Assembly: GCA_035295545.1 (NCBI GenBank)
Contig: DATGIT010000009.1
Coordinates: 140,823 to 204,822 of the forward strand
From: Candidatus Binataceae bacterium
Lineage (GTDB): Bacteria > Desulfobacterota > Binatia > Binatales > Binataceae
Reading direction: 5' to 3'
DNA length: 64,000 nucleotides
The position numbers and the translations under genes are program-made. Position 1 is the stretch's first letter; the number at the start of each line of letters is the position of its first letter. This document shows, one piece after another, positions 20,480 to 55,681 of the stretch. The notes below the pieces were generated by a model. That model was not told where the DNA came from, made no database searches, and worked only from the letters and a program-made list of their open reading frames with translations.

Positions 20480-20505
20480 TTAGGGCCGCGGCGGCAGGAG
20501 CGGCG

Positions 20506-37282: not shown

Positions 37283-38143
37283 TCAGAAATAGACATTCTG
37301 CATCGTGCGCACGCCTGCGCGCCGCTCTCTGATTCGAGGATGGTCGAACAGGTGCAGGAGAAAAATCTGATCTATCCAGCGCGCGTCTTTGAAGAGCCGC
37401 CGCGAGCGCAGAAAACGGTACTGCTCGATTTTGCGCATTTCATGTTCGGCGTTGAATTCGTTGATTGCGAGCAGTTCGCCGGCCCAGTTGCTGTAGGTCG
37501 GCAGCACGATGTCGTCAAAATACAGAATCGGCAGGAACAAATACTTGGCCGCGTTGGGATCGGCCAGCAGACCCAGGGCCGGTTTGGTTGATGAATAGTA
37601 ATCCAGATCGAAGGCGGCGAACCCCAGTGGTGCGTCGGTGCTGAGCGAGTTGCCGACGAACGCCGGCACGGTCTGGTGAACCGGCCCGAGCACCAACTCG
37701 CAATTGGACGGCAGACTCGTTCGCAAGCGCTCGTGCTCCATCGGAAAATCGCCTGCCTGAAATTCCTCCGGATGGTCGCGGTAGTCGGACGGCGGCGGCA
37801 TTCCCGCTCCGCTGTCGAAGCCGACGATTCTGACGCCGACCCCGGTCGTGCGGCTTACGCGGCTCGCGATCGCGCACAGGTTGAGCAGGCCTTCGCCGGC
37901 GGCGACGCCGAATTCCACCGCCGTGAAGCACTTTACGCCCGCCTCGCGCGCCTGGTCCGCCGCAGCCAGAAGCCCATACGCGTAGTGCGGTCGGCTGATG
38001 AGATCGCACGCGACCTTCGCGCGGAAAGTTCCCAGCAACGCGACCGCTGCCGAGGCTGCATTCAGATGCAATGGCTCGGTGAGCCGCTCGCGCAGAATGC
38101 GGTAACGAGCGCTGCGCTGCCGGCGTAGCTTGCGGAGCAACAT
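37283..38143 (-). CDS. TylF/MycF-like class I SAM-dependent O-methyltransferase candidate
   Basis: VKCFTAVEFGVAAGEGLLNL and FAAFDLDYYSSTKPAL...LYFDDIV resemble the macrocin-O-methyltransferase family (IVECGVxRGGS...LDGDLYEST...DDY). Lower GC than the chromosome average. Confidence 0.45.
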   Translation of the reverse strand: MLLRKLRRQRSARYRILRERLTEPLHLNAASAAVALLGTFRAKVACDLISRPHYAYGLLAAADQAREAGVKCFTAVEFGVAAGEGLLNLCAIASRVSRTTGVGVRIVGFDSGAGMPPPSDYRDHPEEFQAGDFPMEHERLRTSLPSNCELVLGPVHQTVPAFVGNSLSTDAPLGFAAFDLDYYSSTKPALGLLADPNAAKYLFLPILYFDDIVLPTYSNWAGELLAINEFNAEHEMRKIEQYRFLRSRRLFKDARWIDQIFLLHLFDHPRIRERRAGVRTMQNVYF

Positions 38144-38157
38144 CGCTTCGGTCCTCC

Positions 38158-39948
38158 TCAGACGCGGATGCGGCGCGCGAATTGTCTGGCCAGCGCCAGC
38201 ATGCGCTCGTTGCCGGCGAGATGATTGTCGCGAAATTCCGACAGCCAGCGGCGCAATGCGACACGGGCCTCGTGGGCCACACGGCTGCGCGCATCGAGCG
38301 GCGCGCGCTCATTCGTCCGGCTCACTTCGACCGTCGCCTGCTCGCCGGGATCGAGTTCGAGTTCGGCTGCGAGCCGCCCGTGCGCTCTTCGATGCTCCAG
38401 AGGCGAACCGTTGAGCAACAGCCCCGCGTCCGGATCTTCGTCAGCGACAGGTCGCGAGATCGTGAAGACGGTTCGCGAGCCGTATGGATTACGCATCCGG
38501 AAGCGTCGGGTATAGAATTTCGCTTCGGCCGCGGCCGGCCCGGTTTTCCTGTACAGCGCCGTTTCCGTCAGACTGGTCTCGAGCGGCGCCCACGAGATGC
38601 GCGGCTCCATTTCATTGATCGAACGCACAAATTCACAGGCGGCTGTATAGCCATTTTTGAAATAGTCGTGATGCTCGACGATCAGAGCCGGCTTGCCCAT
38701 GAACAGATCGAAGGCAAACGGAAACGACGCAATCGGATATCTTCGGCCGAACAAGGGCAATCCGCCGTCGCCGACCACGGCCACGTCCAGCAGGTCGCGA
38801 ATGGTCAGTTGCCGGCGGAAGGAGCCGGACGCCAGGACCGATGTATTCACCGCGGCGAGGTAGCCTTCGGCCGCCAGCGCCCGCAACGCGGCGCCTGAGA
38901 AGCCGCCTTGCGGGAAAATCATGATTGGCTCGCATGGAAGCCCGCTGCTTGCCGCATGCGCCCGCATCCGGCTGATTGCGGTGCGCGCCTTGTCGCGAAG
39001 CATCGCTTCGTCTTCGTCGGCAAATTCGGCGGCCGTATGATCGCAACCGTGGATGCATAGCGAGAAGCGGTTGCCGTGCGTGCGCAGCAGATCGGCAACC
39101 TGGGGATCGGTCCGGCGATAATTCCACGGAATGAATGCCAGCGTGGTCGCGAATCGATGAGCTTCCATCTCGGCGACGAGCCGATCGAAGCGCAGAAATC
39201 CGTAACGCGGGCGCAGCAGCGGGTCATCGATGGTGAGCGTCGCGTGCGGCGCCGGGTTGCTCCAGCAGTATTCGCTGAACGCGCTGCGCAGAAACAGCAG
39301 CGGCGGCAGCAGGCTCGCGTAGTGCCGCGCGTCCAGGCCGCCGGCCTCGGCTTTCTCATCGAGATCCGCCATCTCGCCTTCGGCGCAGAGGAAAATCCGG
39401 CACCCGCGGAGTTTCGCCAGCGCCAGGCATGGGCGTTGCTCGAGCGTTACAATCTGACTGACTGCGCCGCCGCGCAAATCCGCCTGTCCGACGGCAAAGC
39501 CGCGCGCGTCCGCGCTTGGTGGGAACTTCAGCCCGGCCAGCGGTCCCGCGATCTCGCGCGCCGCCGGCGAGATCGCGTAAGCTCCGGAGTTACCGTGGCT
39601 GTCAGCGGAGCGGAACAGCGCGCGATCGGTGAGCCATGCGGCCACATCGTCGCCCTCGTTCGGCCGGAACCCATAGATGAAAGCATGATCGAAACCGGCC
39701 AGCAGCGCGTCCGGCGAAGCGGGTGGGATGCGGGCCTGATCTTTGAGCCGCGCCAACGCGTTGCTGCTGGCCGCGATAGCACTGCATCCTCGCATCTTCG
39801 CCGAATCCAACAGGTCCTCGCCGGCGCCATCTCCGCATACCTTCAGCGTCAGCGCCTCGACGCCCATCATTTCGACGAGCTTCGCGAGTCTCAGGTCCGA
39901 AGCGCGGCTGGCCGCGCATGAGAGCAAGGCGAGTCGTGAAGCGGCCAC
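38158..39948 (-). CDS. Hypothetical 596-aa protein with a CE4 (polysaccharide deacetylase)-like central region
   Basis: LTIDDPLL (resembling TFDDG) is followed ~65 aa later by LCIHGCDHT (HxxxH-like). The N-terminal ~200 aa and the C-terminal region have no recognisable motif. Confidence 0.4.
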   Translation of the reverse strand: MAASRLALLSCAASRASDLRLAKLVEMMGVEALTLKVCGDGAGEDLLDSAKMRGCSAIAASSNALARLKDQARIPPASPDALLAGFDHAFIYGFRPNEGDDVAAWLTDRALFRSADSHGNSGAYAISPAAREIAGPLAGLKFPPSADARGFAVGQADLRGGAVSQIVTLEQRPCLALAKLRGCRIFLCAEGEMADLDEKAEAGGLDARHYASLLPPLLFLRSAFSEYCWSNPAPHATLTIDDPLLRPRYGFLRFDRLVAEMEAHRFATTLAFIPWNYRRTDPQVADLLRTHGNRFSLCIHGCDHTAAEFADEDEAMLRDKARTAISRMRAHAASSGLPCEPIMIFPQGGFSGAALRALAAEGYLAAVNTSVLASGSFRRQLTIRDLLDVAVVGDGGLPLFGRRYPIASFPFAFDLFMGKPALIVEHHDYFKNGYTAACEFVRSINEMEPRISWAPLETSLTETALYRKTGPAAAEAKFYTRRFRMRNPYGSRTVFTISRPVADEDPDAGLLLNGSPLEHRRAHGRLAAELELDPGEQATVEVSRTNERAPLDARSRVAHEARVALRRWLSEFRDNHLAGNERMLALARQFARRIRV

Positions 39949-39951
39949 GGG

Positions 39952-40275
39952 TCAAGGCGCCGGATTCGCCAGCAGGTTGCGCAGCGCGTCGATCAGGCTA
40001 CCCAGGGTTTTAAGGTCGTCGCTGTTCAACGGACTTTCCCCTTCTTCGGCGGCGAGAACGATTTCACGTCCCAGGGAGTCGCGAATTCCGTCCTCGATGA
40101 ACACCAGCAGATTGATCACGGCCAGCGAGTCGAACGCGCTTCCGTCATCGAGCAGCGGGACCGCGCGGCTCTTAGGCAGCCGCTGAGCGCCGGACAAGAG
40201 CTCGTTTACGCTATCGATCGCGCGAAAGACGATCGCTTCAACCGCTGCTCCGGCATTGCCATTCGACTCCGGCAT
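39952..40275 (-). CDS. Acyl carrier protein
   Basis: 107 aa. Phosphopantetheine-attachment motif DDGSAFDSLAVINLLVFIE (DSL). Confidence 0.65.
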   Translation of the reverse strand: MPESNGNAGAAVEAIVFRAIDSVNELLSGAQRLPKSRAVPLLDDGSAFDSLAVINLLVFIEDGIRDSLGREIVLAAEEGESPLNSDDLKTLGSLIDALRNLLANPAP

Positions 40276-40324
40276 CGACTTCCCTCACTTCACGGATTTT
40301 GCGGGCGGATGCGCCGACCGCGCA

Positions 40325-40870
40325 CTACGTAACGGTCCGCGACGCGGACCCGTTTCCGGTTTCGCGGGGCGGACGCGCGGGCCGCAGCCCGCGAAGGAAC
40401 GATACGTACGAAGGCGCCGTCGCCAGCGGGACCGCCACCGTGGCCACGACCTGGGGAGCCGCAGGCTTGACGAAGGTGAAAGGGGCCACGTCACTCGTGA
40501 TAATCGAGCCAGCGCCCACCACCGCACCTTCGCCAATAGTAAGAATGCGCCCCTTGGCGCTGCTGATCAGGCAGCAGGCGCCGATCCAAGCGCCTTTTTT
40601 TATGACCACCTTACCGGGGCCGCGCAGGTGGGCGATAATCACGGATCGGAGTCCGATCTCGACGTCGTCTTCGATCTCGATACAGGTCGGATACTCATTC
40701 TCCAGATAGACATCGTCGCCGATGAAGACATTGCGTCCCAGGCGCACGCCTCTCAGGCGATGGAGAAAGGGCCGCAGGCTTCGGCTGCCGGGCAAAGCGC
40801 GCGCCATCAAATGGAGCACGCGGTTCACCGCCCCGCGAGGAAGAGAATTGCGCTCGACCTGGTTTGCCAT
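40325..40870 (-). CDS. Hexapeptide-repeat (left-handed beta-helix) acyl/acetyltransferase
   Basis: Imperfect hexapeptide repeats (IGDDVYLE...IEIEDDVEIGLRSVII...KGAWIGACCLISSAKGRILTIGEGAVVGAGSIITSDV). Start taken at MANQVERNS; the longer 213-aa version is also possible. Confidence 0.65.
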   Translation of the reverse strand: MANQVERNSLPRGAVNRVLHLMARALPGSRSLRPFLHRLRGVRLGRNVFIGDDVYLENEYPTCIEIEDDVEIGLRSVIIAHLRGPGKVVIKKGAWIGACCLISSAKGRILTIGEGAVVGAGSIITSDVAPFTFVKPAAPQVVATVAVPLATAPSYVSFLRGLRPARPPRETGNGSASRTVT

Positions 40871-40874
40871 CCAG

Positions 40875-42704
40875 TCAGTCAACCGCTTGCGTGGCCGGTC
40901 GGATATGCCGGTGCGCACGCGGCGGGCGTGCCGCTTGATCGATCGCCGGCCAATCCGCCGCATCATTCGCCAACGATACGCACCCGGGAAGCGGGTAATC
41001 CCGATCCAGGCTCCAATCGAAGACCCGCGACTCGGTTGAGTTGCCGGAGGTTTCGGTCATGCCGCTGCCGCAAAAAAAGCGCAGGCAGGGCTGGTTTCTT
41101 GCCGTGGGCAGATACCCGGCGCGGAGCGACGACGAGCCGGCGCGCCGTGCCTGCGCGGCGAGCGTGTGGAGCATCGCTTCTTCAATTCTTCGCCCCATCA
41201 CTCGGCAGCTGAGGACGAAATCTTCTATATTTGCCGTTGCCGCCGGGCGGTCCAGGCTGAGCGAGCCGATGCCGACCAATCCGTAGTCGCCGAACCTGTC
41301 GGCCACGCGAAAGACCAGCACGCGACGATCGGGCGCGGACGCCCACGCCAGCATTTCCGACGCCGGCAGCCTCCGCGTGCGCAGATTCATCTGGTTGGTC
41401 TTGTTCAGGAGCTGCGCGGCGCGTTCCAGGTTGGCGGCGCTCAATTCCTCGACCTGGACGCGCAGCTCGAGCGTGGCGAGCCAGGCATCCAGCGACGGCA
41501 CGGTTTGCTGCAGCTGTTTGCGCCGGCGCTCGGACAGGTACATCGCGCCGCGCGCGCGATCCTCCGCGCTCACCGCGGGCGCGTCAAAGCAGTCGAGCGC
41601 GCGCAACGCCGAGGCGAACTCGAGCGGGTTTTGCGGCCACTGCGGCACCAGCAGCGCGGGCAGCGCTTCGGCGACCCGCGCCCGCTCCACCGGATGGTCG
41701 TCGATCAACACGGCCGCGTCGAGTCCGAGATTCAGCTCGGCGACCAGCTCCGCGATGTTGCGCGCCTTGTCGTTCCAGTCGATGCGCCAGCCGGCGAAAT
41801 CGTCCAGCTTCAACACCATCTCCGGATGGTTGGCGATGGCCTCGAGCGCGGTGCGCTCTTCGTTCTTGCTCGCGATTGCGAGCAGGACGCCGCGCCGCGC
41901 GAGCGCTTTGAGCGCGAGCTGAAAATCCCGAAAGGCTTCGCCGACCGCGTCATGTCCGCCCAAGCGCAGCGCGCGCCAGCCGACGTCGCCGACCACCCCG
42001 CCCCACAGCGTGTCGTCGAGGTCGAGAATCACGAGCTTGCGCGCGCCGCCCGCGATTCCTGTGAGCGCAGCGCTCAGGTCGCGCGCCGCCGATTTGAACA
42101 CGTCGAGCGAGAAGGGAATCTTCGCCAGGTACCACATCCGGGCGTCGCAGGCGCGCGTGCCGGCCTGTGCGATCCAGCGCGCGGCATCGAACAGATGGAT
42201 CCGCGGGTCGCCGCTCACGGCCTCGGCCAACGCCAGGTTCATGCGCATCAGCGTCGCGCTCGGGCCGATGGTCGGATGCATGTCGAGCAGTCCGCGGCGG
42301 CCTTCGAACGCGTGCATCGGCGCCCAGGTCGGCACCAGGATCGACTTGACGTGCGGCGGTATCGCGGCGAGCGCGCGCGCGTACGCGCGCACTTCCTCCA
42401 TCATCTGTTCCAGCACCAGTGGCTCGTATGCCAGCACGCCGGCGTATGCCTTCGAGATCGCCTGCGGCGACGTCCATACGACGGCCGCGTCGAGGTCCGC
42501 CTGCCACACGGCGGAATGCGCGGCGAGCAGCAGCTGCATCACCTGTCCGAACGGAGCAGCGGTCGCGCGAAGTCGCGCTCCGTTTGCGCTCCAGTTGGAA
42601 AGCAACGAGGCCAGGTTCTGCGCGTTGAAATCCGAGACTATGAGGATATTCCTCGTGTGCAGAGCGGCGCCGTCCGCCCGAATGACCGTGTCCACCTTGT
42701 CCAT
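40875..42704 (-). CDS. FkbH-like HAD-superfamily (subfamily IIIC) protein with C-terminal GNAT-like domain
   Basis: KLVILDLDDTLWGGVVGD (HAD DxDxT motif) with the FkbH-like domain architecture and a C-terminal VFRVADRFGDYGLVGIGSLSL...FVLSCRVMGRRIEE domain. 609 aa. Confidence 0.65.
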   Translation of the reverse strand: MDKVDTVIRADGAALHTRNILIVSDFNAQNLASLLSNWSANGARLRATAAPFGQVMQLLLAAHSAVWQADLDAAVVWTSPQAISKAYAGVLAYEPLVLEQMMEEVRAYARALAAIPPHVKSILVPTWAPMHAFEGRRGLLDMHPTIGPSATLMRMNLALAEAVSGDPRIHLFDAARWIAQAGTRACDARMWYLAKIPFSLDVFKSAARDLSAALTGIAGGARKLVILDLDDTLWGGVVGDVGWRALRLGGHDAVGEAFRDFQLALKALARRGVLLAIASKNEERTALEAIANHPEMVLKLDDFAGWRIDWNDKARNIAELVAELNLGLDAAVLIDDHPVERARVAEALPALLVPQWPQNPLEFASALRALDCFDAPAVSAEDRARGAMYLSERRRKQLQQTVPSLDAWLATLELRVQVEELSAANLERAAQLLNKTNQMNLRTRRLPASEMLAWASAPDRRVLVFRVADRFGDYGLVGIGSLSLDRPAATANIEDFVLSCRVMGRRIEEAMLHTLAAQARRAGSSSLRAGYLPTARNQPCLRFFCGSGMTETSGNSTESRVFDWSLDRDYPLPGCVSLANDAADWPAIDQAARPPRAHRHIRPATQAVD

Positions 42705-42710
42705 CCCCGC

Positions 42711-43673
42711 CTAGCGCGAAGAGCTCCGCGCCATCTTCAAAGAAGTCCCGATCTGCCTGCGCGCGTCGGAGCCCGGAGCTGCACGCGTGACCGTCGCCCG
42801 CGCCTGCGGCGCGCGCCGCACGCGCAGCGCCAGGAAAATGCGCCGTTTGAGTTCCGCTGCCCACGGCACCCAGTCATACGCGCCGACCAGCTTGAGATGA
42901 AACTCGATCATCCAATCATCGGGATCGACGCGCACTCTGCCAATCAGGAATTCGCACGGGTCCTCAAGCGCCCGCGCCGGCATGCCGTCGAACGCCCGCT
43001 GGTAGCCCGCCATCCGGCACAGCGCGAGCGTCTGCGGGGTGTGGACTCCGAACGGGAAACAGAACAACACCACTTCCTGTCCGAGCACCTGTTTGAGCCG
43101 TTCGCGCGAGTCGATGAGTTCGCGCAAAGCCTCGCGCCGGCCGGTCGCGACCAGGCGCCGGTGCGAGCAGGTATGCGACCCGATCATGACCAGTCCGGCC
43201 GCAATGTCCGGCTGCAACGCGCGCAATTCCGTCTCGGAAACGATCCGATCGCGTTGCCCGCCCAGATGCTCACCCATGCAATCGGAGATGACGAAGATCG
43301 CGACCGGAATGCGTCGCTGCTTGAGCTCCGGCAGAGCATTTTCGACAAAGCTGGTCCATCCGTCGTCCGCGGTGACCATGGCGTAACGTCGCCCAGGAGG
43401 AAGGGGTGCTCTGTGATCTGCGCTAATCGGCACGGCCCAACGCAGCAGATGATCCATTTGCCTGGCGAATCGGTCGCGCTGTTCGGGCAAAACCTGATGA
43501 TAGTAGATGCCCGTCGCGTGCCCGGGACGCCTGGAGCCGAGCACCCGCGTCAATCCATCGACCAGCGACCGCAGCAGCCAGAAGCTCATCGACAGCAGAA
43601 ACTTCACCAAGCGAAGGAGCGGATTGGGTGCGAAGGGGGGCATCGCAGCATCGTGTGCTTTGAGTCTGGACAT
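42711..43673 (-). CDS. Polysaccharide deacetylase (CE4/NodB-homology) family protein
   Basis: RRYAMVTADDGW (TFDDG-type motif) and MIGSHTCSHRRL (HxxxH). N-terminal hydrophobic segment. Confidence 0.7.
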   Translation of the reverse strand: MSRLKAHDAAMPPFAPNPLLRLVKFLLSMSFWLLRSLVDGLTRVLGSRRPGHATGIYYHQVLPEQRDRFARQMDHLLRWAVPISADHRAPLPPGRRYAMVTADDGWTSFVENALPELKQRRIPVAIFVISDCMGEHLGGQRDRIVSETELRALQPDIAAGLVMIGSHTCSHRRLVATGRREALRELIDSRERLKQVLGQEVVLFCFPFGVHTPQTLALCRMAGYQRAFDGMPARALEDPCEFLIGRVRVDPDDWMIEFHLKLVGAYDWVPWAAELKRRIFLALRVRRAPQARATVTRAAPGSDARRQIGTSLKMARSSSR

Positions 43674-44089
43674 ACCGACACGTCAGGCTGGCGGAGCGCT
43701 CTTGAGGCAGGGAGCAACTTTTATGCCCTGCGTTTCGTGCTCTTTGGACTAAAAAAGTGCGAAATCGTTACTTGGATTCACCAGGCGCGTCTGCAAAATC
43801 GAATCAGCCTCTTGCAATTCTTGCCGACTCGATTTCTATAAAAGCAATCTACCGCCGAGGACCTGAGCAGGCGATGTCTGGCGCGAATCGGCTTGCAAGC
43901 GCACCGTACGGTGCTGCGCAAGGTGCCGCGTACCAGCCAGCACCGGGTTTATGTTGAGACTCAAGGACCACGTCGCACGCCCAAGTCGATGCGTGCGCGT
44001 AACCAAAATGACGCCGCCAGCTCCGGAGAGATTTGTAGCGCCCGATAAATGAAGACTAATATGCGGGTATCTGTCGCAGGAAAACCGCG

Positions 44090-47000
44090 ATGGCTGACGA
44101 CAGTCGGGACCAGCAGGCAAAGCAGCGGCGCGTTCCCGTCTGCGGGATAGGAGCCTCTGCCGGAGGCCTCGAAGCACTGCAGAAGCTGTTCGGCGCTTTG
44201 CCGAACGATCTGGGTCTGGCCTACGTGGTCATTGTCCACCTTGCTCCGGATCGCAAGAGCGATCTGCCGGCCATCATCGGCCGCTGGACGCAGATGCCGG
44301 TGACGCAGGTGGGCGACCACGACAGGGCCGCGCTGGCGGGCAATCACGTCTACGTGATTGCGCCGGACCGCCGGCTCGAAATCACGGATACCTCGGTCGC
44401 TGCGGCAAATTTCGAGCAGGTGCGCGGTCAGCGGGCGGCGATCGATCTGTTTTTCCGCTCGCTCGCTTCGGCGCGCGGTGACGGGTTCGCGATCATTCTT
44501 TCAGGCAGCGGTTCAGACGGCGCGCTGGGCGCGCGCGCGGTCAAAGAGAGTGGCGGGGTGGTCCTGGTGCAGGATCCGCAGGAAGCGGCTCACAGCGATA
44601 TGCCGCAGGCGGTCATTGCCACGGGGGTTGCGGATGTTGTGTTGCCGGTGAAGGAACTGGTCGCGCGACTGGCCGATTTAGCGCGCACCAAGGACAGCGT
44701 TAACTCGCTCGCCAACGCGGAGGAATCCCAGCGCTTCGATGAACGCGAGGAGCGCGCGCTGCGCGGTATCTTCGACCTGCTACGACGCCGCACCGGCCAT
44801 GATTTCTCCAAGTACAAGCGCAACACGGTGTTGCGGCGGCTCGCCAGGCGCATGCAGCTTTCCCACCAGCTGACGATCGAGGATTACCTGCACTTTCTCC
44901 GCCGCGATGCCGGGGAGGTGGGTTCGCTTTTCGACGATCTGCTGATCTCGGTCACCTCGTTTTTTCGCGATGCGGACGCCTGGGACGCGCTGCAGGCGCA
45001 GGTCATTGTTCCGCTGCTCGATCGCACGGCGGTTGAAGAGCAGCTGAGGGTATGGGTCCCGGCGTGCGCCACCGGAGAGGAGGCATACACGCTCGCGATC
45101 CTGTTCCATGAGGTGTTCGAACGTCTCGGCGTTCAGCGCGATCTGGTTATTTTCGCCTCGGACGTGGACGAGCCCGCGCTGGCGGTCGCTCGGGAGGGAT
45201 TGTATCCGCGGGCAATCGCCGCCGATGTGACGGAGCTGCGACTGGACCGGTATTTCCGGCTCGAAGGCGACCATTACCGGGTGGCAAGTACCATCCGCGA
45301 CCATGTGGTTTTCGCCGCGCACAATCTGCTGCGCGATCCGCCGTTCTCACGGCTCCACCTCGTCTCGTGCCGCAATTTGCTGATCTATCTCGATCGCGAG
45401 CTGCAGGAGCAGGCGATGGCGGTGTTCCGGTACGCGTGCCGCGACGAGGCTTTTCTGTTCCTGGGAGCTTCGGAAGTGGCCGACGCGGAAATGTTCCAGG
45501 ACGTTGACAAGAAGCACCGCATCTTTGTGATCCGCCCGCGAACCGACGGCAACCGCACTCCCTTGCCGGATGTTCTGGCGACGCAGACCGGACCGATGGT
45601 TCGGCGCGAAGCCCAGGCGCCCATGCGTACCAACCTGGCGGAGATCCACCTCGCGGCGCTCGAGGAGGCGGCGCCGCCGACGGTGGTCATCGATGAGCGC
45701 TGGAACGTGCTCCACCTGTCGCCGAGCGCATCGCGCTTTTTCCAGCAGAGCGGGGGACCGCTGGCGCAACGCATCACAGACCTGATCAGGCCGGAACTAC
45801 GCGACGATTTGCACGCCCTGCTGCACCGCGCCGCGGAGGCGCGCGGGCCGCAACTCTCGGCCTTCATCTCGGTGACTTTCAACGGCGCGCTCCATCGCGT
45901 CGCCATGTTGATCCAGCAGCCGCGCAACGCGGACGGAATCGCGGCCCACGCCCTGATCACTTTTCTCGACGCCGGCGAGGCCAGCGAGCAGCCGGCACCC
46001 GACCAGGAGCCGACCAGTGAAATGGTGCGCGCGTTGCGCGAAAAGCTGCGCCAGGCCGAGCAGCGCATCGAAAACATGCGCGACGACTACTATCTCACTA
46101 ACGAAGATCTGCGCGCCGCCAACGAGGAGTTGCAAAGCCTCAACGAGGAGTATCGCTCGACCACCGGGGAACTTCAGACCAGCAAGGAAGAGCTGCAGAG
46201 CATCAACGAGGAGCTGCAGACCGTCAACCAGGAACTCAAGCAGAAACTCGAGGAGGTTTCGCGCGCGAACAGCGACCTGGAAAACCTGATGGCCGCTGTT
46301 GACGTGGCGACGCTGTTTCTCGATCGCCAGTGCCGCATCAGCCGCTTCACTCCGCGTCTGGGCGAGATCTTCAACGTCAAGGCCCGGGATCGCGAACGCC
46401 CCATCAGCGATATCACGCACGTGCTCGATTACGCCGCGCTGGAGAGCGATGCGCGGCGGATGATTGCCGGCTCCAGGCCGTTCCAGCACGAAGTCAGGAG
46501 CCGCGATGGACGGGTCTTCGTCGCGCGCCTCAATCCCTACCGCCAGATCGGCAAGGATGAGATTGACGGCGTGGTTATCACGTTCATCGACGTGACCGAG
46601 ATCAAGGCGGCCGAGGCGGCCTTGCGCGACAGCGAACGCAGGCTCGAGGCGGAACTCGACGTGATGCGGAAGCTCCATCGGATGACGATGGCGATGGCCA
46701 CGGCGCCGACGCTGGTGCAGGCTCTGAACGAGAGTCTGAACTCGGCGATTAGCCTGCTCGGGGCGCAATTCGGCAGCGTCCAAGTGCTCGATGCGGATTC
46801 GCACAAGCTGAAAGTCATAGCGCAGCGCGGTTTTCAGCCGGAATTCCTGAAAACCTTCGACTCGATCGGAACCGAGGACAATTCCTCTTGCGGTCGCGCC
46901 CTGCGCTCGCATGCCTCGGTGCTGATCGAGGACGTGGCCTCAGAGCCCGACTATACGCCGTATCGCGCGACCGCTGCTGCCGCCGGCTACCGCGCGGTCC

Positions 47001-48295
47001 AATCCGAGCCGATGCTGGGAAAGGACGGCAAGCTGGTCGGCGTGCTCTCGGTCCATTTTCGCGAGCCGCACCGCTTCACCGATCGCGAACGGCAGATTGG
47101 CGCGCTCATCGCCCGGCAGGCGGCTGACCTGGTAATGGCTCATCGCACGGCCGCCCTCGAGGCGAGCGAGAAGGAACTCTCCACAAGGGCGGCCCAGCTG
47201 GTCGAATACGATCGCAACAAGGACCGTTTTCTCGCCGGGCTCGGGCATGAACTGCGCAACCCGATGGCCGCCATCCAGTACAGTCTCGAACGGCTGTTGC
47301 CCAGCGGCGAACCGTCCAAAACCGCCATCGCTCTTATCCGGCGCCAGGCGGAGCACATGGTGCGCCTCATCGACGACCTGCTCGACCACACGCGAATCAA
47401 TCGCGGGACGTTGCGCGTCGTGCGCAGCGCGGTCAATCTCAACCAGACCGTGCTTGCCGCCGTCGAAGCGGTGCGCGCGCGCGCGCGGTCCAAGGGACTC
47501 ACGGCCGAGGCGAAATTGCCCGATAACCCGATCTTTGTTCACGCCGACCAGGAACGTCTCACGCAGATCCTCGACAATCTGCTGAACAATGCCCTGGCGT
47601 TCACCGAACACGGAAGCATCACCGTCAGCGTCGAGCGTAGCGAAGCGCTGGCTCGAATCACGGTCCGCGATACCGGCGTGGGCGTCGACCCGGCTCGGGC
47701 CCAGACGCTCTTCGAGCCGTTCAGGGTCGCTGACTTGCCTGCTCGTGGCGATGACTTGGGGATGGGTCTGGGGCTGTCGCTGGTCAAGCGTCTGGTGGAG
47801 ATGCATGAGGGGACCGTGGCATTGCATAGCGAGGGGCGCGGGAGCGGGAGTGAAATCACCTTCACGATTCCGCTCGCCCGCGGCGAAATTCCTCCCGCCC
47901 CCGCACCTCCCGACCTGCCGCCCCCGCGCCGGGTGCTTGTGGTCGACGATCAGCGCGACGTCGCGGAGATGTTCGGTCGCCTGCTCGAGGGCATGGGACA
48001 AGACGTGCGCGTGGCATATAGCGGTGAAGCCGCGCTCGCGGTCGCACGCGCTTATCGACCGCACGTCGCTTTCGTGGACTTGGCCATGCCCGGCATGGAT
48101 GGTGAAGAGTTGGCGCGGCGGCTGCGCGAGGAATTTGCGCCCGAACAGCTTGCGCTGGTTGCGACCAGCGGCTATCCGCGCAACGAAGAATTGGACAGCG
48201 CCACACTCTTCGAGCATCACCTGCTAAAGCCCATTGCAGCCGAGCAACTGATCGCGCTGCTGAACTCCCTGGCTCCTGGCATGTCTTCGAAATAG
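44090..48295 (+). CDS. Multidomain sensor: CheB methylesterase + CheR methyltransferase + coiled-coil linker + PAS/GAF + histidine kinase + C-terminal receiver domain
   Basis: - CheB-like: VCGIGASAGGLEALQKLF...VVIVHLAPDRKS.
- CheR-like: LRVWVPACATGEEAYTLAILF...FSRLHLVSCRNLLIYLD.
- Heptad coiled coil: ANEELQSLNEEYRSTTGELQTSKEELQSINEELQTVNQELKQK.
- HisKA: LGHELRNPMAAIQYSLE.
- HATPase_c: RDTGVGVD...GMGLGLSLVKRLVEMHEG.
- REC: VLVVDDQRDVAEM...VAFVDLAMPGMDGEEL. Confidence 0.85.
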   Translation: MADDSRDQQAKQRRVPVCGIGASAGGLEALQKLFGALPNDLGLAYVVIVHLAPDRKSDLPAIIGRWTQMPVTQVGDHDRAALAGNHVYVIAPDRRLEITDTSVAAANFEQVRGQRAAIDLFFRSLASARGDGFAIILSGSGSDGALGARAVKESGGVVLVQDPQEAAHSDMPQAVIATGVADVVLPVKELVARLADLARTKDSVNSLANAEESQRFDEREERALRGIFDLLRRRTGHDFSKYKRNTVLRRLARRMQLSHQLTIEDYLHFLRRDAGEVGSLFDDLLISVTSFFRDADAWDALQAQVIVPLLDRTAVEEQLRVWVPACATGEEAYTLAILFHEVFERLGVQRDLVIFASDVDEPALAVAREGLYPRAIAADVTELRLDRYFRLEGDHYRVASTIRDHVVFAAHNLLRDPPFSRLHLVSCRNLLIYLDRELQEQAMAVFRYACRDEAFLFLGASEVADAEMFQDVDKKHRIFVIRPRTDGNRTPLPDVLATQTGPMVRREAQAPMRTNLAEIHLAALEEAAPPTVVIDERWNVLHLSPSASRFFQQSGGPLAQRITDLIRPELRDDLHALLHRAAEARGPQLSAFISVTFNGALHRVAMLIQQPRNADGIAAHALITFLDAGEASEQPAPDQEPTSEMVRALREKLRQAEQRIENMRDDYYLTNEDLRAANEELQSLNEEYRSTTGELQTSKEELQSINEELQTVNQELKQKLEEVSRANSDLENLMAAVDVATLFLDRQCRISRFTPRLGEIFNVKARDRERPISDITHVLDYAALESDARRMIAGSRPFQHEVRSRDGRVFVARLNPYRQIGKDEIDGVVITFIDVTEIKAAEAALRDSERRLEAELDVMRKLHRMTMAMATAPTLVQALNESLNSAISLLGAQFGSVQVLDADSHKLKVIAQRGFQPEFLKTFDSIGTEDNSSCGRALRSHASVLIEDVASEPDYTPYRATAAAAGYRAVQSEPMLGKDGKLVGVLSVHFREPHRFTDRERQIGALIARQAADLVMAHRTAALEASEKELSTRAAQLVEYDRNKDRFLAGLGHELRNPMAAIQYSLERLLPSGEPSKTAIALIRRQAEHMVRLIDDLLDHTRINRGTLRVVRSAVNLNQTVLAAVEAVRARARSKGLTAEAKLPDNPIFVHADQERLTQILDNLLNNALAFTEHGSITVSVERSEALARITVRDTGVGVDPARAQTLFEPFRVADLPARGDDLGMGLGLSLVKRLVEMHEGTVALHSEGRGSGSEITFTIPLARGEIPPAPAPPDLPPPRRVLVVDDQRDVAEMFGRLLEGMGQDVRVAYSGEAALAVARAYRPHVAFVDLAMPGMDGEELARRLREEFAPEQLALVATSGYPRNEELDSATLFEHHLLKPIAAEQLIALLNSLAPGMSSK

Positions 48296-48599: not shown

Positions 48600-49253
48600 A
48601 TGGAACGCAAGTACTTCTCAGTGTCGTGCGATCCCGGCCGGTCGCTTCTTGGCGGAAAAGTCGTCTGCGGATATGGCAGGCGGCTGCGCAAGGCCGCCAT
48701 CGCTGGTTTTCTGGTCGTCGGGGTCGCGCTCCGTACCGGCGCCGCAGCAGCGGGTGCCGACGCAGGCGCTTCGGGGCCAGCCCTTGGATCGGCCCGCGAC
48801 TACGTACAGACCGAACCCGGCTATTACGCTCCCAACTCGGTGGATTCCTACGAGAGCGCCGCGTTGGGCATTGCGGTCCAGGCGGAGACGGTGTGGTCCG
48901 GGCGGGGGCGATGGGTTGATGGACTGAGGATCGTGCGGATACTCCCCGGCAGTCGGGCGGGCGCGGCAGGTCTGCAGGGGAGCAGTCCGGGAAGCCTGAG
49001 TACCAGTCTGCTTTTCTTCGGCATGATTGCAAGCGCGGCGATATGCCCGCCGATGATGTTCGGGATGATTGCGCTCAGCAAGGCTGTCCAGCCGCATGAA
49101 ACCATCATCGCCGTGGATGGCGAGCGGACGCGCAACATTTTCGATTTCGAGAACGCCATCGAGGAAGGGCAGGCGGGGGAAATCGCCTACCTGACTGTCC
49201 TTAGCCATGGCCGCCGCGAACAGATTCCAGTGCTTCTGGCGCCGGGAGGTTGA
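48600..49253 (+). CDS. Hypothetical PDZ-domain-like protein
   Basis: GLRIVRILPGSRAGAAGLQ ... ETIIAVDGERTRNIFDFENAIEEGQAGEIAYLTVLSHGRREQIPVLL resembles a PDZ fold interrupted by a hydrophobic insert. Start uncertain. Confidence 0.35.
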   Translation: MERKYFSVSCDPGRSLLGGKVVCGYGRRLRKAAIAGFLVVGVALRTGAAAAGADAGASGPALGSARDYVQTEPGYYAPNSVDSYESAALGIAVQAETVWSGRGRWVDGLRIVRILPGSRAGAAGLQGSSPGSLSTSLLFFGMIASAAICPPMMFGMIALSKAVQPHETIIAVDGERTRNIFDFENAIEEGQAGEIAYLTVLSHGRREQIPVLLAPGG

Positions 49254-49370
49254 TGGAATCACGGCGCGCGCGCCGCCGCCGCGAGCGCATGCACCGAGCC
49301 GTACCGGCATCGGCAGTCAGGCAGGGCGTCGCCATGAACGGATTGCACAGTCGCGTGTGGCACGGTGCGA

Positions 49371-49631
49371 CTAGGTGCCGCGCAATTTCGGCACGTTGTA
49401 GGCATCGAAGGCAATCAGCGTTTTGGTTTCACGCAGGTGGGGCACGCGCTGGATTCGATCCACCACCAGGCGCGCCAGCTGATCGAAGTCCGCCACCCTG
49501 ATCTTCACGATGAGGTCGTAGTCGCCCGCGAGCGAATGCATCTCCTCGACGATCTCCATTTCGACCAGCGCCTTGACTACATCGTCGAGATGCGCAGGTT
49601 CGGTTTTCATCAGCACGAACGCTACGAGCAT
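49371..49631 (-). CDS. Stand-alone Lrp/AsnC C-terminal (RAM/ligand-binding) domain protein
   Basis: 86 aa. MLVAFVLMKTEPAHLDDVVKALVEMEIVEEMHSLAGDYDLIVKIRVADFDQLARLVVDRIQRVPHLRETKTLIAFDAY matches the AsnC_trans_reg domain and has no N-terminal HTH. Confidence 0.6.
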   Translation of the reverse strand: MLVAFVLMKTEPAHLDDVVKALVEMEIVEEMHSLAGDYDLIVKIRVADFDQLARLVVDRIQRVPHLRETKTLIAFDAYNVPKLRGT

Positions 49632-50005
49632 CGGTCTATCCTCCGGATTGAAACGATTCGCGCGCGATACAAATCCAGCCGAACCATGTTGCAGAACTCA
49701 GCCGCTTCGCGAAACGGCCGATCGCGCGGTCTGCTCAGCCCCGGCCTCCGCACTGCAAGGATAATTGACCGCCGAATTCAGGTAACACCCAAGACGTCAC
49801 GCCGCCCGCAAGGCACAGAAAATAGACGTTCGTCTTGAATCGATGTCAGCCTCTTATTATGTCTCTTTATTCTCAAAAGATGGAAATGCACGTCTTGAAG
49901 TAAAACCGGTCAGAGCGTTCTCGACATTGTCCCGCATTAGCGTTCCTTGAATCGAGGACGGTTTTTTGTAGAAATTGTGGCAAACAGATAAGACGAAGCT
50001 GGAGC

Positions 50006-50335
50006 ATGCGAAAATACATTACTCCAGGATCGGTTCGGATTTACGGCCTTCCCGGCACGGACGAGAATTTCGGCCTGCGTGACAATGGCGCCGGGCAGAT
50101 GTGGTCGATGACCAGGAGGGTCGGCACGATCAACTACTGGACGGGCGAGGTCGTTCTGGACAAGAAGTACGTCCCGAAGTTTGGCTTCTGGTACGAGCTG
50201 AAATCCATGTTCAAGCTGAGGCGGGGTGATTCTGCCGATATCAGCTGTGAGTATGAGGTCTCGGTGCTTGATATTGAAGGCAAGCAGGAGCCCGCTTTCA
50301 CCGGACTCAAGTACCCGTTCGTGACAGGACGCTAG
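50006..50335 (+). CDS. Hypothetical protein (109 aa) in a low-GC island
   Basis: Intact ORF with coding-like composition. No recognisable motif. Confidence 0.35.
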   Translation: MRKYITPGSVRIYGLPGTDENFGLRDNGAGQMWSMTRRVGTINYWTGEVVLDKKYVPKFGFWYELKSMFKLRRGDSADISCEYEVSVLDIEGKQEPAFTGLKYPFVTGR

Positions 50336-50420
50336 AGCGGCGAGCGGCTGCCCTAGCCAGCATTACTCGCCGGTTCGCGCTGAGGATTTCGAGCGCTTCC
50401 GCGCAGCGCCGGCAGCCCGG

Positions 50421-52028
50421 TCAGTGCGCCGCCGGTCCGGCCGCGCGCGTCGGGCGAAGCAACAGAAAGGCCGGCACGAATACCGCCGCCATCATCGCGA
50501 GCATGCGGTAGATATCATTGTAGGCCAGCAACGATGCCTGCTGCTGCACGCCTCTGTAGAGCACTCCGAATCCTTGCGCATGATTCGTGATCAGTCCGTG
50601 CATCAGGTTGAAGTGCGGCGCGCCCGGCAGCTGCGTTGGCGCCCGGTCGATGCGCCAGATGTCGAACGCGGTGACATGCTGCGTGAGGTAGGCCTGATGT
50701 GTCTGTTCGCGGCTGTTCAGTAGATTGGTCACCAGCGATATTCCAATCGCCGAGCCGGTGTTGCGCATCATGTTGTAGAGACTGGCGGCGTAGCCCATAC
50801 GCTCCTTCTCAACGCAGGCCAGCGTCGCAGCCGACATCGCCGGGAAAATAAGGCCCGATCCCAGACCCGAGAGAATCATCGCGAAGCGCACGCTGCTCAT
50901 GCTGATGCCGAGCGTCCACCGGCTCATCGACCACAGCGCGATCGCCAACAGGGCGAACCCCAGACCGACAAACCCTCGCGTGTCGATGCCGCGGCGCGAA
51001 ATCTGTCCAATCAGGAACATTCCGAACAAGGTTCCGAAGCCGCGCGGCAGCACGGCCAACCCGGATTTCCACGGCGAGTAGTCCAGCAGCTCCTGGAAGA
51101 AGAGCGGATTGAGCAGATTGAGGCCGAACACGACCAGGATCATCACCAGCACGATCGTTACCGAGACGTCGAACAGCGGGATTTCCAGGATGCGCAGGTC
51201 CAGAATGGGTTCGGGAAAGCGCAATTCCCGGAACACGAGCAGGATCAGAGAAATCACCGCTGCGGCGGTGAACGCGCATACCCACCACGAGTCGAACCAG
51301 TCGGCGCGCTGGCCGCGGTCCAGGACGATCTGCAGCAGCCCCAGACCGAGCGCCAGGTAAGCGATGCCCAGGTAGTCGACCCGTCGCGCGCTCGCCTGCG
51401 ATTTGCGTATGTGCTCGGGATCGTGAACGAAGACGATCACCATCAGCGTTGCCACGATTCCGATCGGCAGGTTGATATAAAAATTCCAGCGCCAGCTCCA
51501 GTTATAGGTGATCCAGCCGCCGAGCGTCGGTCCCAGCATTGGCGAAGTCAGCAGCCCCATGCCCCAGACCGACATCGCGAGGCCCTGCTCCTCGGGCGGG
51601 AAAGTCTCCATCAGGATGGCCTGCGAAGATGGAATCATGGCCGCGCCCGCTCCGCCCTGAATCACCCGGAACACGACCATCTGCGCGAGCGATTGCGCGG
51701 CCCCGCAGAGCCCGGACGAGATCATGAAAACCACCACGGACAGCAGAAAATAGCGTTTGCGCCCGAACCGGGCGGAGATCCATCCGGTCAGCGGAATCAT
51801 TATTCCGTTGGCGACGATATAGCTGGTCAGAATCCAGGTGACTTCGTCCCGGCTCGCCGAGAAACTTCCCTGCATGTGCGGCAGTGAGACGTTGACGATT
51901 GAAGTGTCGAGAACCTCGAGCGTCGCGCCGAGCATGACCGCGACCGCCACCAGCCACTTGTGACTCGCGGACGGGCTCGCGGCCCGAGAGGCTCTCGCGT
52001 GAGCGTCGTCAGCTATTCCTGCGGCCAA
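50421..52028 (-). CDS. MFS transporter, DHA2 (EmrB/QacA-like, 14-TMS) family
   Basis: LEVLDTSIVNVSLPHMQGSFSASRDEVTWILTSYIVANGIMIPLTGWISARFGRKRYFLLSVVVFMISSGLCGAA is the canonical EmrB-family N-terminal region. 535 aa. Confidence 0.8.
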   Translation of the reverse strand: MAAGIADDAHARASRAASPSASHKWLVAVAVMLGATLEVLDTSIVNVSLPHMQGSFSASRDEVTWILTSYIVANGIMIPLTGWISARFGRKRYFLLSVVVFMISSGLCGAAQSLAQMVVFRVIQGGAGAAMIPSSQAILMETFPPEEQGLAMSVWGMGLLTSPMLGPTLGGWITYNWSWRWNFYINLPIGIVATLMVIVFVHDPEHIRKSQASARRVDYLGIAYLALGLGLLQIVLDRGQRADWFDSWWVCAFTAAAVISLILLVFRELRFPEPILDLRILEIPLFDVSVTIVLVMILVVFGLNLLNPLFFQELLDYSPWKSGLAVLPRGFGTLFGMFLIGQISRRGIDTRGFVGLGFALLAIALWSMSRWTLGISMSSVRFAMILSGLGSGLIFPAMSAATLACVEKERMGYAASLYNMMRNTGSAIGISLVTNLLNSREQTHQAYLTQHVTAFDIWRIDRAPTQLPGAPHFNLMHGLITNHAQGFGVLYRGVQQQASLLAYNDIYRMLAMMAAVFVPAFLLLRPTRAAGPAAH

Positions 52029-52088
52029 TGACTGTCTCTCCAGGTGCGGCGAGTCGAGCGGCTGTCGTGCAGCAACATGCAGGCCCGC

Positions 52089-52829: not shown

Positions 52830-53015
52830 ATGCTTTCCTGGCTGCCTTTCGCAGAGCATCGATCTGCGGCGAGGTTTGCGCAAGCGCGCCGTGCGCTTTG
52901 CCGCCCGTTCAGCGATGTCGCGCTCGCGCGCATTTGACGCACAGGCGGCGCCGGCGCTAGCTTTCCGCTTATCCTTTGCGGCATGCGTGCCGCGTGCGGA
53001 GCGGAGGCGCGCTTC

Positions 53016-53969: not shown

Positions 53970-53990
53970 GTCGACATCGTTCCAGTAAAC

Positions 53991-54023
53991 GAACGGGCCG
54001 GGAAGCGTCTTCCCGGCCCGTTC
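53991..54023. terminator. Bidirectional terminator hairpin between convergent genes
   Basis: GAACGGGCCGGGAAG-CGT-CTTCCCGGCCCGTTC is a perfect 15-bp stem followed by ACTTTG. It lies between the PTE stop (53969) and the minus-strand HTH gene stop (54047). Confidence 0.6.
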
Positions 54024-54046
54024 ACTTTGCGGCTCACCGACTTGGA

Positions 54047-54292: not shown

Positions 54293-54576
54293 CCCCCTGT
54301 TAGGCTTCGTGGTGCCGACGCCTCAAGCGAAAGTCGGGATGTCGCCGAAAAGACCAGACAGATACCCTCATCCACCCCAGCGTCATCAACCTCTAGCTGA
54401 CGCCCGATATTTTAGGCATTATTTCGCCAATGTGAACGCACGCGGCGATTGCCTATCAACAGCGGACAAATCCTGTTGATAACTTTGCCGATCCCGACGC
54501 TGACAGAGTCAGCATCACAGAAAGACGCCGCGACCCTGTTCTCGCCCTTGCGCAACCGCTTGGTTAGGAGAACCGC

Positions 54577-55593: not shown

Positions 55594-55681
55594 ACTTGCC
55601 CGGCGAACAAGATCGCGGCGCGCGAGTCTCCGTTCCGTCGAACGGACAGTAATCACCGAAGACTCGCTCGCTGCGAATGCT

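Follow-up and report, generated by a model that had tools for sequence, protein, structure and literature searches.

A six-gene operon of an uncultured Binatia bacterium that may tailor a surface polysaccharide with a carrier-borne acyl group

We analyzed an operon of six minus-strand genes at positions 37283-43673 of a 64,000-bp stretch of DNA (hereafter, the window) from a 'Candidatus Binataceae' bacterium (GenBank assembly GCA_035295545.1, contig DATGIT010000009.1, positions 140,823 to 204,822). In operon order, they encode a polysaccharide deacetylase of carbohydrate esterase (CE) family 4 (CE4), an FkbH-like HAD-IIIC loader (FkbH), a left-handed beta-helix (hexapeptide) acyltransferase (LbH), a dedicated acyl carrier protein (ACP), a protein similar in predicted fold to the deacetylases Agd3 and NDST1 (P596), and a predicted methyltransferase (MT286). 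Most likely, with a probability that we put at roughly 0.5, these genes tailor a surface polysaccharide: an N-acetyl group would be removed, a carrier-borne glyceryl unit put in place and a methyl group added. That they form a glycan-tailoring cassette we regard as very probable; that acylation occurs on the nitrogen after deacetylation, rather than on a hydroxyl, is an evenly balanced matter. The organism is an uncultured soil bacterium, and all functions of the operon are those that we infer computationally. HMM, profile or fold searches bore out the families that a first-pass annotation of this DNA had guessed for all six proteins.

Two predicted deacetylases

P596 escaped identification by sequence: it had no match in Pfam or NCBIfam, none in the PDB by phmmer or with a profile of 77 sequences, and none in 72,556 plasmids searched by tblastn. 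An AlphaFold2 model built on 77 homologues (pLDDT 90.1, pTM 0.90) predicted, from its DSSP layout, an alpha/beta domain (residues 1-230), a CE domain (~235-460), a beta-sandwich (465-545) and a helical hairpin (554-593). The best Foldseek match of this model was Agd3 (6nwz, the galactosaminogalactan deacetylase of Aspergillus, family CE18; 2e-10, TMq 0.46, 750 columns), together with human NDST1 (8ccy; 2.4e-8, 508 columns), and the next ones, ArnD and single-domain CE4 enzymes, covered just ~230-290 columns. Matches to GATase1-like structures (3soz, 2gk3, MetA) paralleled those reported for the N-terminal domain of Agd3. In Agd3, a non-catalytic CBM87 alpha/beta domain lies ahead of a distorted (beta/alpha)7 CE domain, which is followed by a beta-sandwich (PMC7229062), and in NDST1 a Rossmann-like non-catalytic N-terminal domain precedes the deacetylase domain (PMC10864358). 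The large N-terminal domain of P596, which had been called unassignable in the first-pass annotation, can be assigned by predicted structure to this CBM87 or NDST1 N-terminal type.

The residues expected of a catalytic center are also conserved. Asp241, His300, His304, Arg402 and His426/His427 are invariant in the 77 sequences and Asp242 is conserved in at least 90% of them. By motif, Asp241/Asp242, His300/His304 and the His set match the catalytic set of NDST1, namely D319/D320 as base and metal aspartates, H389/H393 as metal histidines and H529 as acid (PMC10864358). P596 would thus share with Agd3 and NDST1 both the three-domain order and the Asp-Asp, His-x3-His and His set. It has no signal peptide or transmembrane segment and its homologues align from residue 1, a combination that does not suggest extracytoplasmic action. 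On the basis of the model and motifs, P596 is probably a cytoplasmic three-domain metal-dependent deacetylase that folds and works like Agd3 and NDST1. Because no sequence homology to family CE18 was detected, we did not file it as a member. An hhalign comparison of the P596 family with that of the CE4 protein encoded in the operon placed HGCDH over HTCSH and FPQG over FPFG at an E-value of 0.056, which we do not count as evidence.

The P596 family is large and uniform, with 1573 clusters at 50% identity (E<=1e-30), nearly all of ~600 aa. Two longer homologues (P0404 and P0415) carry N-terminal extensions that look like mis-called starts, so that we dropped the idea of carrier domains fused there; the sole real fusion was to a GT2-type glycosyltransferase (GT). 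In one Binatia locus (L011 8202-9964, equivalent to L114 12717-13964; L numbers are our locus designations), the P596 homologue is broken into two frames at ~9377, with a public call of 415 aa. This gene is either a frameshifted pseudogene or the product of an assembly error, the six-gene cassette being otherwise intact.

The CE4 protein was recognized directly by sequence (Polysacc_deac_1, PF01522; 1.4e-18, 67.5 bits vs a cut-off of 23.1). Its Asp103-Asp104 and His167/His171 (His-x3-His) are invariant in homologues, and its motif 3, FPFG/APYG, is without the usual Arg. The N-terminal helix is amphipathic or hydrophobic, without a clear transmembrane segment (Kyte-Doolittle maximum 1.45).

Genomic linkage and glycan context

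A metagenome scan with the P596 profile yielded 80 loci, which derive from many lineages since their GC content spans 0.35-0.67, and these were searched with HMMs of the six proteins; 25 well-flanked loci had at least 3 kb on either side of P596. Within 1 kb and on the same strand, the tightest partner of P596 is the LbH gene, found in 42 of the 80 loci and in 13 of the 25 well-flanked ones. FkbH was present in 21 and 12 of them, ACP in 16 and 7, CE4 in 6 and 5, and MT286 in 1 and 0. Several loci devoid of FkbH contain other acyl-activation genes. In L052 (4225-11707) and L044, genes for AMP-binding, LuxE and LuxC proteins lie directly upstream of LbH-P596, and adenylating enzymes occur in about ten more LbH-P596 loci without FkbH. 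In L084 (1797-6833), LbH-P596 is preceded by a gene for a nonribosomal peptide synthetase (NRPS) condensation-domain protein; downstream come genes for a phosphopantetheinyl transferase and then a Wzz/BY-kinase. The linkage counts and these alternative genes argue that deacetylase and LbH acyltransferase form a stable unit with exchangeable suppliers, FkbH and ACP being the predicted acyl supplier of the Binatia operon.

This arrangement leads us to a tentative idea, to which we give somewhat less than even odds: LbH and P596 could be the core of a widespread modular system of 'N-acyl editing' for bacterial polysaccharides, functionally equivalent to NDST of animals. P596 would strip N-acetyl groups in the cytoplasm, and LbH would put in their place acyl groups brought on carrier proteins, with FkbH as supplier of glyceryl and adenylating or LuxE-type enzymes or NRPS condensation domains as suppliers of other acids; the variant for glyceryl and methyl would be that of Binatia. 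Elsewhere, glycan loci combine FkbH homologues with acyltransferases of different fold. Plasmid pHL2708Y3 of Maritalea myrionectae (L030) encodes an 819-aa protein in which FkbH is fused to an aminoglycoside-3-N-acetyltransferase domain, within a locus of nonulosonic-acid type (4321-15098) comprising pseB, a UDP-glucose dehydrogenase gene, an epimerase gene, the FkbH fusion, MaoC-SDR, a DUF4910/DUF2172 protein, a NeuB-like synthase and a GT2; it offers a cultured-organism candidate for FkbH-dependent sugar N-acylation. In an Anaerolineales locus (L026), a GNAT gene is found at a distance of two genes from ACP-FkbH, among GT and CE4 genes.

All six genes recur with identical order in metagenome-assembled genomes of Binatia or 'Candidatus Binataceae' (L008, L010, L011, L012/L004 and L013). 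MT286 is the most conserved protein (67-79% identity across Binatia); in these cassettes, identities are 71-79% for MT286, 65-80% for LbH, 58-72% for FkbH, 46-64% for ACP, 45-57% for CE4 and 40-55% for P596. Two loci (L007 and L014) hold five genes, rearranged and without CE4. Genes for glycan assembly (GT, Wzx, Wzy) were not found among the main open reading frames of the window and are present beside homologous cassettes of relatives. L027 has the order Wzx-CE4-Wzy-P596-MT286-FkbH-LbH-ACP, beside GT2, GT4 and UDP-glucose dehydrogenase genes. In L028, FkbH-LbH-PMT_2-GT2-ACP-P596 lies amid Wzy, a MurJ-type flippase, GT4s, CE4s and a sulfotransferase. GT4, GT2, Wzx and UDP-glucose dehydrogenase genes follow ~5 kb downstream in L004, L005 and L114, and L006 carries the P596-GT2 fusion within a Wzy cluster. 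The closest relative (L113) has Wzy_C 3 kb upstream of its cassette. Since cassettes of relatives lie in or beside Wzx/Wzy/GT clusters and P596 is found fused to GT2, the acceptor is best seen as a glycan and not a small metabolite. The first-pass annotation had suggested ACP-dependent acylation or glycerylation and methylation of either one; this context upholds the glycan and speaks against the small metabolite.

As a side observation, L113 also carries, directly downstream of the cassette, a DDE transposase gene (15322-16404) followed by one for an adenylation-thiolation-thioesterase (A-T-TE) protein; on the upstream side, a phage-type integrase gene (632-1849) lies farther out than Wzy_C, FemAB-like and methyltransferase genes. 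The integrase and transposase give a hint that the cassette moves as an island.

We also considered a small-molecule natural product, with glyceryl-ACP feeding a tetronate, methoxymalonyl-type or aminoglycoside-like metabolite. Polyketide and tetronate pathways are the best-known setting of FkbH together with ACP, homologues of FkbH occur in polyketide synthase (PKS) contexts on Ralstonia megaplasmids (within a PKS-type protein) and Streptomyces plasmids, and the A-T-TE gene of L113 would suit such a product. However, the main open reading frames (ORFs) of the window include no PKS, NRPS, GT, Wzx or Wzy, in agreement with the earlier remark that no PKS/NRPS module is present, and no ketosynthase or FabH-like gene. 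Dehydrogenases of FkbI/FkbK type are lacking next to the operon, and the single acyl-CoA dehydrogenase gene of the window (16454-17608) lies ~20 kb away amid housekeeping genes. With relatives repeatedly embedded in Wzx/Wzy/GT clusters, we hold a natural product to be very improbable, and rejected a polyketide/tetronate pathway given the lack of ketosynthase and PKS genes and the glycan-synthesis context in relatives.

Acyl loading and transfer

FkbH is a clear member of its family, matching NCBIfam TIGR01686 (1e-80, 271.3 bits vs a cut-off of 146.65) over positions 2-317 of the 323 in the model; it also matches TIGR01681 HAD-IIIC (1.3e-13) and scores 17.9 bits on Pfam FkbH_N, under the cut-off of 27. 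Its nearest structure is the uncharacterized BF1531 of Bacteroides fragilis (PDB 3slr, 4.6e-42). The protein consists of an N-terminal domain, a HAD phosphatase domain and a C-terminal acyl-transfer domain with an active-site Cys. Among 29 homologues, Thr232 is conserved in at least 90%, and there is no variation at Asp228, Asp230, Ser279-Lys280-Asn281, Lys313, Asp335-Asp336 or Ser499-Cys500-Arg501; the HAD DxDxT motif is intact. An inactive HAD motif, which the first-pass annotation had kept in mind, is thus not the case, and Cys500, which we take to be the counterpart of the acyl-accepting Cys of OzmB, is equally preserved. Judging from these motifs, FkbH probably loads a C3 hydroxyacyl unit onto ACP.

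The ACP had no match in Pfam or NCBIfam at E<=0.01. A profile of nine orthologous sequences, searched against the PDB, recovered carrier proteins only, at weak E-values (9e-4 to 0.8): 2lki (9e-4), 2ehs (4e-3), DltC and PltL. Asp49-Ser50 is invariant among the nine orthologues and aligns with the DSL motif of the carrier proteins 2ehs and 2lki.

LbH gave a weak Hexapep match in Pfam and, in NCBIfam, matches to NeuD/PglB/VioB (1e-8) and WcaF (1.4e-8), both under cut-off; its scores on the LpxA and LpxD models are far under theirs. Among solved structures, LbH comes closest to nucleotide-sugar N-acetyltransferases (7s43, 1.6e-6; WlbB 3mqg, 2e-4), with O-acetyltransferases (WcaF, galactoside/maltose O-acetyltransferases, polysialic acid O-acetyltransferase) close behind. 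We propose that LbH moves an acyl group from the carrier protein to a sugar; gene linkage makes it reasonably likely that the group is drawn from ACP.

These similarities also bear on a different scheme, in which LbH esterifies a sugar hydroxyl with ACP-borne glyceryl, as WcaF/NodL-type enzymes do with acetyl. The two deacetylases would then independently make free amines (cationic glucosamine or galactosamine, as in poly-N-acetylglucosamine, Pel or galactosaminogalactan) or remove O-acetyl groups. This fits with the O-acetyltransferases listed above scoring almost like the N-acetyltransferases, and with CE4/CE18 enzymes classically leaving the amine free. Nevertheless, P596 and LbH are same-strand neighbors in over half of the loci, for which two successive reactions at a single atom are the simpler explanation, the best-scoring solved structures related to LbH are nucleotide-sugar N-acetyltransferases, and known glyceric-acid modifications of sugars include N-linked ones (Pse5Am7Gra). 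We consider O-acylation in this form rather unlikely.

The methyltransferase

MT286 belongs to a distant family without a name: it had 2299 matches, and every named one was called 'hypothetical'. In Pfam, Methyltransf_24 reached 15.4 bits, under its cut-off of 26.3, and TylF (PF05711) was found in just one of 17 relatives (E 0.17). Similarity to CalS11 was detectable with the single sequence (3e-4) and by profile (4e-8), and the AlphaFold2 model (pLDDT 93.1) has a class I S-adenosylmethionine (SAM)-dependent methyltransferase fold, for which Foldseek placed CalS11 first (2.8e-8), then MeT1, COMT, CmcI and MycE. Glu77-x-Gly79-x-x-x-Gly83 (SAM motif I), Asp110, Asp179-Leu-Asp181 and Asp210 are invariant, Asp179-Leu-Asp181 being aligned to FDLDLY of CalS11. 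A homologue with 59% identity occurs elsewhere (L111 5065-12883) in an rmlA-rmlB-[MT]-rmlC-rmlD-like operon with Wza, Wzz and Wzx, which suggests that the family includes O-methyltransferases of nucleoside diphosphate (NDP)-6-deoxyhexoses. Because of this homologue and of the nearest structure being a TDP-rhamnose methyltransferase, the target of MT286 may be a sugar hydroxyl and not the glyceroyl.

Proposed pathway

We propose that the operon tailors an amino-sugar-containing surface polysaccharide, of exopolysaccharide or O-antigen type, on the cytoplasmic side by an N-acyl swap. P596, aided or preceded by CE4, would strip the N-acetyl group from an N-acetylhexosamine of the lipid-linked repeat unit or nascent chain, its alpha/beta domain lengthening the glycan-binding cleft as in Agd3; the fold, the invariant catalytic residues and the context point to this first step. 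FkbH would take a glycolytic C3 acyl phosphate (characterized FkbH/OzmB enzymes use 1,3-bisphosphoglycerate), dephosphorylate it via its HAD domain and hold it as glyceryl-S-Cys500, to pass it from there to the phosphopantetheine arm on Ser50 of ACP, as family membership and intact motifs suggest. From the gene linkage, LbH would then acylate the freed amine with glyceryl-ACP, yielding an N-glyceroyl hexosamine. Finally, MT286, from its predicted fold, would O-methylate a sugar hydroxyl or a hydroxyl of the glyceroyl. Hydropathy analysis revealed no signal peptide or transmembrane segment in any of the six proteins; for this reason, we expect the chemistry to precede export and to involve a lipid-linked unit or nascent chain, or possibly an NDP-sugar. 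The genes for glycan assembly would lie elsewhere in this genome, in relatives the operon being embedded in Wzx/Wzy clusters.

The last of these acceptors defines another scenario, in which the same chemistry takes place on a nucleotide sugar (UDP-N-acetylhexosamine to UDP-hexosamine to UDP-hexosamine-glyceroyl), methylated at the NDP-sugar stage and then used as modified monomer by glycosyltransferases encoded elsewhere. Each of the six proteins appears soluble and cytoplasmic, the enzymes of known structure nearest to LbH (7s43/WlbB-type) and to MT286 (CalS11, a TDP-rhamnose 3'-O-methyltransferase) act on NDP-sugars, an MT286 homologue belongs to an rml-like operon, and a stand-alone operon far from GT genes suits a precursor pathway. 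Even so, we find it unlikely, since P596 is predicted to share its architecture of three domains, the cleft-extending alpha/beta domain included, with Agd3 and NDST1, which act on polymers, and is also found fused to GT2.

Several points weigh against the swap on a polysaccharide. From the gene order, the family and fold assignments, the intact motifs and the linkage statistics, we infer the catalytic steps, the identity of the acyl unit, the N- or O-linkage and the acceptor. P596 lacks sequence-level similarity to any deacetylase (phmmer, the 77-sequence profile against the PDB, and hhalign at 0.056), so that its assignment depends on the predicted structure and motifs; it appears cytoplasmic, whereas Agd3 and NDST1 work outside the cytoplasm. 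The scheme gives no account of why one operon should have a pair of deacetylases. The glyceryl unit is our assumption, extrapolated from FkbH/OzmB enzymes of polyketide pathways. N- and O-acetyltransferases are both among the closest relatives of LbH, with similarly weak scores, and its donor, here deduced from gene linkage, could also be an acyl-CoA. About one third of the well-flanked P596 loci have no LbH nearby, glycan assembly genes are missing among the main ORFs of the window, and the methyl added by MT286 may be unrelated to the glyceryl unit, as relatives of this enzyme sit in dTDP-sugar operons.

Comparison with known systems

The FkbH/OzmB loaders of FK520 methoxymalonyl-ACP, oxazolomycin and tetronates belong to the same TIGR01686 family and share the HAD motifs, the C-terminal Cys and a small dedicated ACP. 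In contrast to these pathways, the operon has no FkbI/FkbK dehydrogenases, FkbG-type partner, FabH-like enzyme or PKS; FkbH is instead accompanied by an LbH acyltransferase, and in relatives the surroundings are those of Wzx/Wzy polysaccharide synthesis. With those defining partners absent from its gene set, the operon is not a member of the polyketide FkbH pathways.

NDST1, like the proposed operon, couples de-N-acetylation to re-derivatization of the same nitrogen, which it achieves by a fused sulfotransferase whereas the operon would use a separate LbH acyltransferase. P596 differs from Agd3 and NDST1 in having no detectable sequence similarity to them, no signal peptide and an extra predicted C-terminal helical hairpin. 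Bacterial Agd3 homologues are found in operons with genes like those of the galactosaminogalactan cluster, consistently with GH114, and with Pel-like outer-membrane components in Gram-negatives (PMC7229062); they are not next to carrier-protein genes, unlike P596.

The same logic, a metal-dependent de-N-acetylase followed by an ACP-fed N-acyltransferase, would relate the operon to LpxC/LpxD and NodB/NodA/NodF. LpxD is an acyl-ACP-dependent LbH enzyme, NodB a CE4 enzyme and NodF a dedicated ACP. In contrast with these systems, the proposed acyl group is a C3 hydroxyacid supplied by FkbH and not a fatty acid, and LpxC and NodA have no homology to the operon proteins. A second parallel is Vibrio cholerae O1 rfbK-O, where tetronate, a short hydroxyacid, is put on the amino group of perosamine in the O-antigen through an ACP, an acyl ligase, LuxC/E-like proteins and an LbH acyltransferase. 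The AMP-binding, LuxE and LuxC genes beside LbH-P596 in L052 and L044 are reminiscent of these genes. In Vibrio, however, the amine is made by an aminotransferase and not by de-N-acetylation, and neither FkbH nor a P596-like gene is known from that system.

Glyceric acid on amino sugars is documented in pathogens. Tannerella forsythia has the N-glyceroyl pseudaminic acid Pse5Am7Gra (PMC5378307), for which 'a candidate gene ... remains elusive' (PMC6120980). Pseudaminic acid of Campylobacter jejuni 11168 carries di-O-methylglyceric acid, a modification linked to Cj1295, listed as 'aminopeptidase' (PMC3068675). The cj1302 gene of its flagellin glycosylation locus is an fkbH-domain gene, and strain 12664 has cj1302 as a pseudogene and is devoid of the dimethylglyceric-acid sugars (PMC7099621). 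Going by these descriptions, the cj1295-cj1304 region resembles the operon in combining an O-methylated glyceric-acid unit on an amino sugar with an fkbH-domain gene. L030 echoes the theme, with its N-acetyltransferase-FkbH fusion by pseB, a NeuB-like gene and a DUF4910 gene. Cj1295 presumably corresponds to DUF4910, and we take the C. jejuni locus to encode ACPs, a methyltransferase and an acetyltransferase as well. Unlike that locus, the window contains neither nonulosonic-acid genes (pseB/C, neuB) nor a Cj1295/DUF4910 homologue; the glyceric-acid pathway of C. jejuni is biochemically undefined too.

The first-pass annotation could not map this configuration to a described pathway; the locus type is common in soil metagenomes, and we found no described function for it in the literature. 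In a search that was not exhaustive, we encountered no FkbH-ACP-acyltransferase route to N-glyceroyl sugars, no function for the P596 or MT286 families, no paper joining 'FkbH' and 'O-antigen', and none on cj1298-cj1302 beyond PMC7099621. A route to N-glyceroyl sugars with FkbH, ACP and LbH thus seems not to have been worked out biochemically, its parts being of known kinds.

Organization of the operon and its surroundings

Our ORF check found the six minus-strand genes at the coordinates of the first-pass annotation (Table 1), whose description of co-directional genes with short gaps held: gaps in operon order are 6 nt (CE4-FkbH), 4 (FkbH-LbH), 49 (LbH-ACP), 3 (ACP-P596) and 14 (P596-MT286). 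All six ORFs show the coding signal in GC content at third codon positions (GC3) of true genes of a 64% GC genome, and public gene callers predicted the identical genes on identical metagenome contigs (ENA ERZ27279679, JGI 3300005529, Logan SRR5579871). Three starts deserve comment. The longest LbH ORF (40325-40966) runs 92 nt into FkbH; the true start is the ATG at 40870, because the public call and the homologues begin there. P596 starts at the GTG at 39948 and not at an ATG 26 codons further downstream, since homologues align from residues 1-6 and the model is confident for the strand at residues 5-10. For CE4, the public call begins at Met11 and gives 310 aa. The partly reduced GC content noted earlier is not distinctive: that of the cassette equals the window mean (0.648 vs 0.643; 46th percentile among same-size windows), and we dropped the argument for horizontal transfer that had been based on it.

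Table 1 Features of the operon (window coordinates)
Feature	Position	Strand	Length and remarks
CE4 polysaccharide deacetylase	42711..43673	-	320 aa; first operon gene; Pfam PF01522
FkbH-like HAD-IIIC loader	40875..42704	-	609 aa; TIGR01686
LbH (hexapeptide) acyltransferase	40325..40870	-	181 aa; weak Hexapep
Dedicated acyl carrier protein (ACP)	39952..40275	-	107 aa; predicted phosphopantetheine site Ser50
P596, Agd3/NDST1-like deacetylase by predicted fold	38158..39948	-	596 aa; AlphaFold2 + Foldseek
MT286, predicted CalS11/TylF-type SAM O-methyltransferase	37283..38143	-	286 aa; last operon gene
Divergent intergenic region, presumed promoter region	43674..44089	.	416 bp; between operon and 1401-aa histidine kinase gene

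A promoter and terminator scan detected no informative site 5' or 3' of the operon. In the divergent intergenic region, a consensus scan gave no convincing sigma-70 site, and a sigma-54 promoter sought by eye amounted to mis-spaced GG/GC elements. An Rfam search of the whole window, including this region, found no family, and none of the six proteins matched the PADLOC defence models. Opposite FkbH and CE4 lies an antisense ORF of 891 aa (41166-43841, +), and several ORFs of 150-300 aa also overlap the operon; their GC2 > GC1 pattern identifies them as high-GC shadow ORFs and not genes.

The left neighbor of the operon is a convergent SDR gene. On the right, a divergent gene (44090-48295, +) encodes a 1401-aa polypeptide with CheB methylesterase, CheR methyltransferase, PAS, GAF, HisKA, HATPase and receiver domains. 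This kinase gene also adjoins the cassette on the identical public contigs and not in other Binatia loci, which carry a sigma-54 two-component pair downstream instead. The neighbors are housekeeping and catabolic genes, the operon standing alone as an accessory module. Given this ordinary housekeeping context, we consider the operon chromosomal: gyrB and gyrA are adjacent at 5916-10988 (+), preceded by ribBA (2222-3421) and the gene of a DsbD-like protein (3486-5528). Further genes encode two CobB/CobQ-type amidotransferases (19082-22050) and a chlorite-dismutase-like protein (22111-22989), and a 430-aa ORF (14526-15818, -) has coding-like GC3 and no Pfam family at E<=1e-5. From ~49000 to 64000, GC content drops from ~0.66 to 0.57-0.61 and the coding signal is thinner, so that this may be a compositionally distinct segment. 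It includes genes for a phosphotriesterase-family protein (52983-53969), a plant-type O-methyltransferase with dimerization domain (54577-55593), a GNAT protein (55682-56620), a sigma-54 activator (59573-60991) and an LptD_N-like protein (62789 to the end).

Implications

The P596 model suggests that the three-domain deacetylase architecture of NDST1 and Agd3 has a large cytoplasmic bacterial branch. Such a branch, hard-wired to an acyltransferase and to carrier-protein loaders, would be unexpected for glycobiologists. The analysis also provides a first functional hypothesis for P596 and MT286, two large families without names. Together with its relatives, the operon gives a testable pathway in which FkbH would load ACP, LbH would transfer the acyl group and the NDST1/Agd3-like deacetylase would ready the acceptor, and a possible spin-off would be enzymes able to re-acylate polymers of chitosan, heparosan or GalNAc type. 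Unusual N-acyl groups on bacterial surface sugars, such as glyceroyl and di-O-methylglyceroyl, influence antigenicity, immune evasion and recognition by phages, and their genetic and enzymatic basis is largely unknown. If true, 'N-acyl editing' would account for the genes still missing for N-glyceroyl and similar unusual N-acyl sugars of pathogens.

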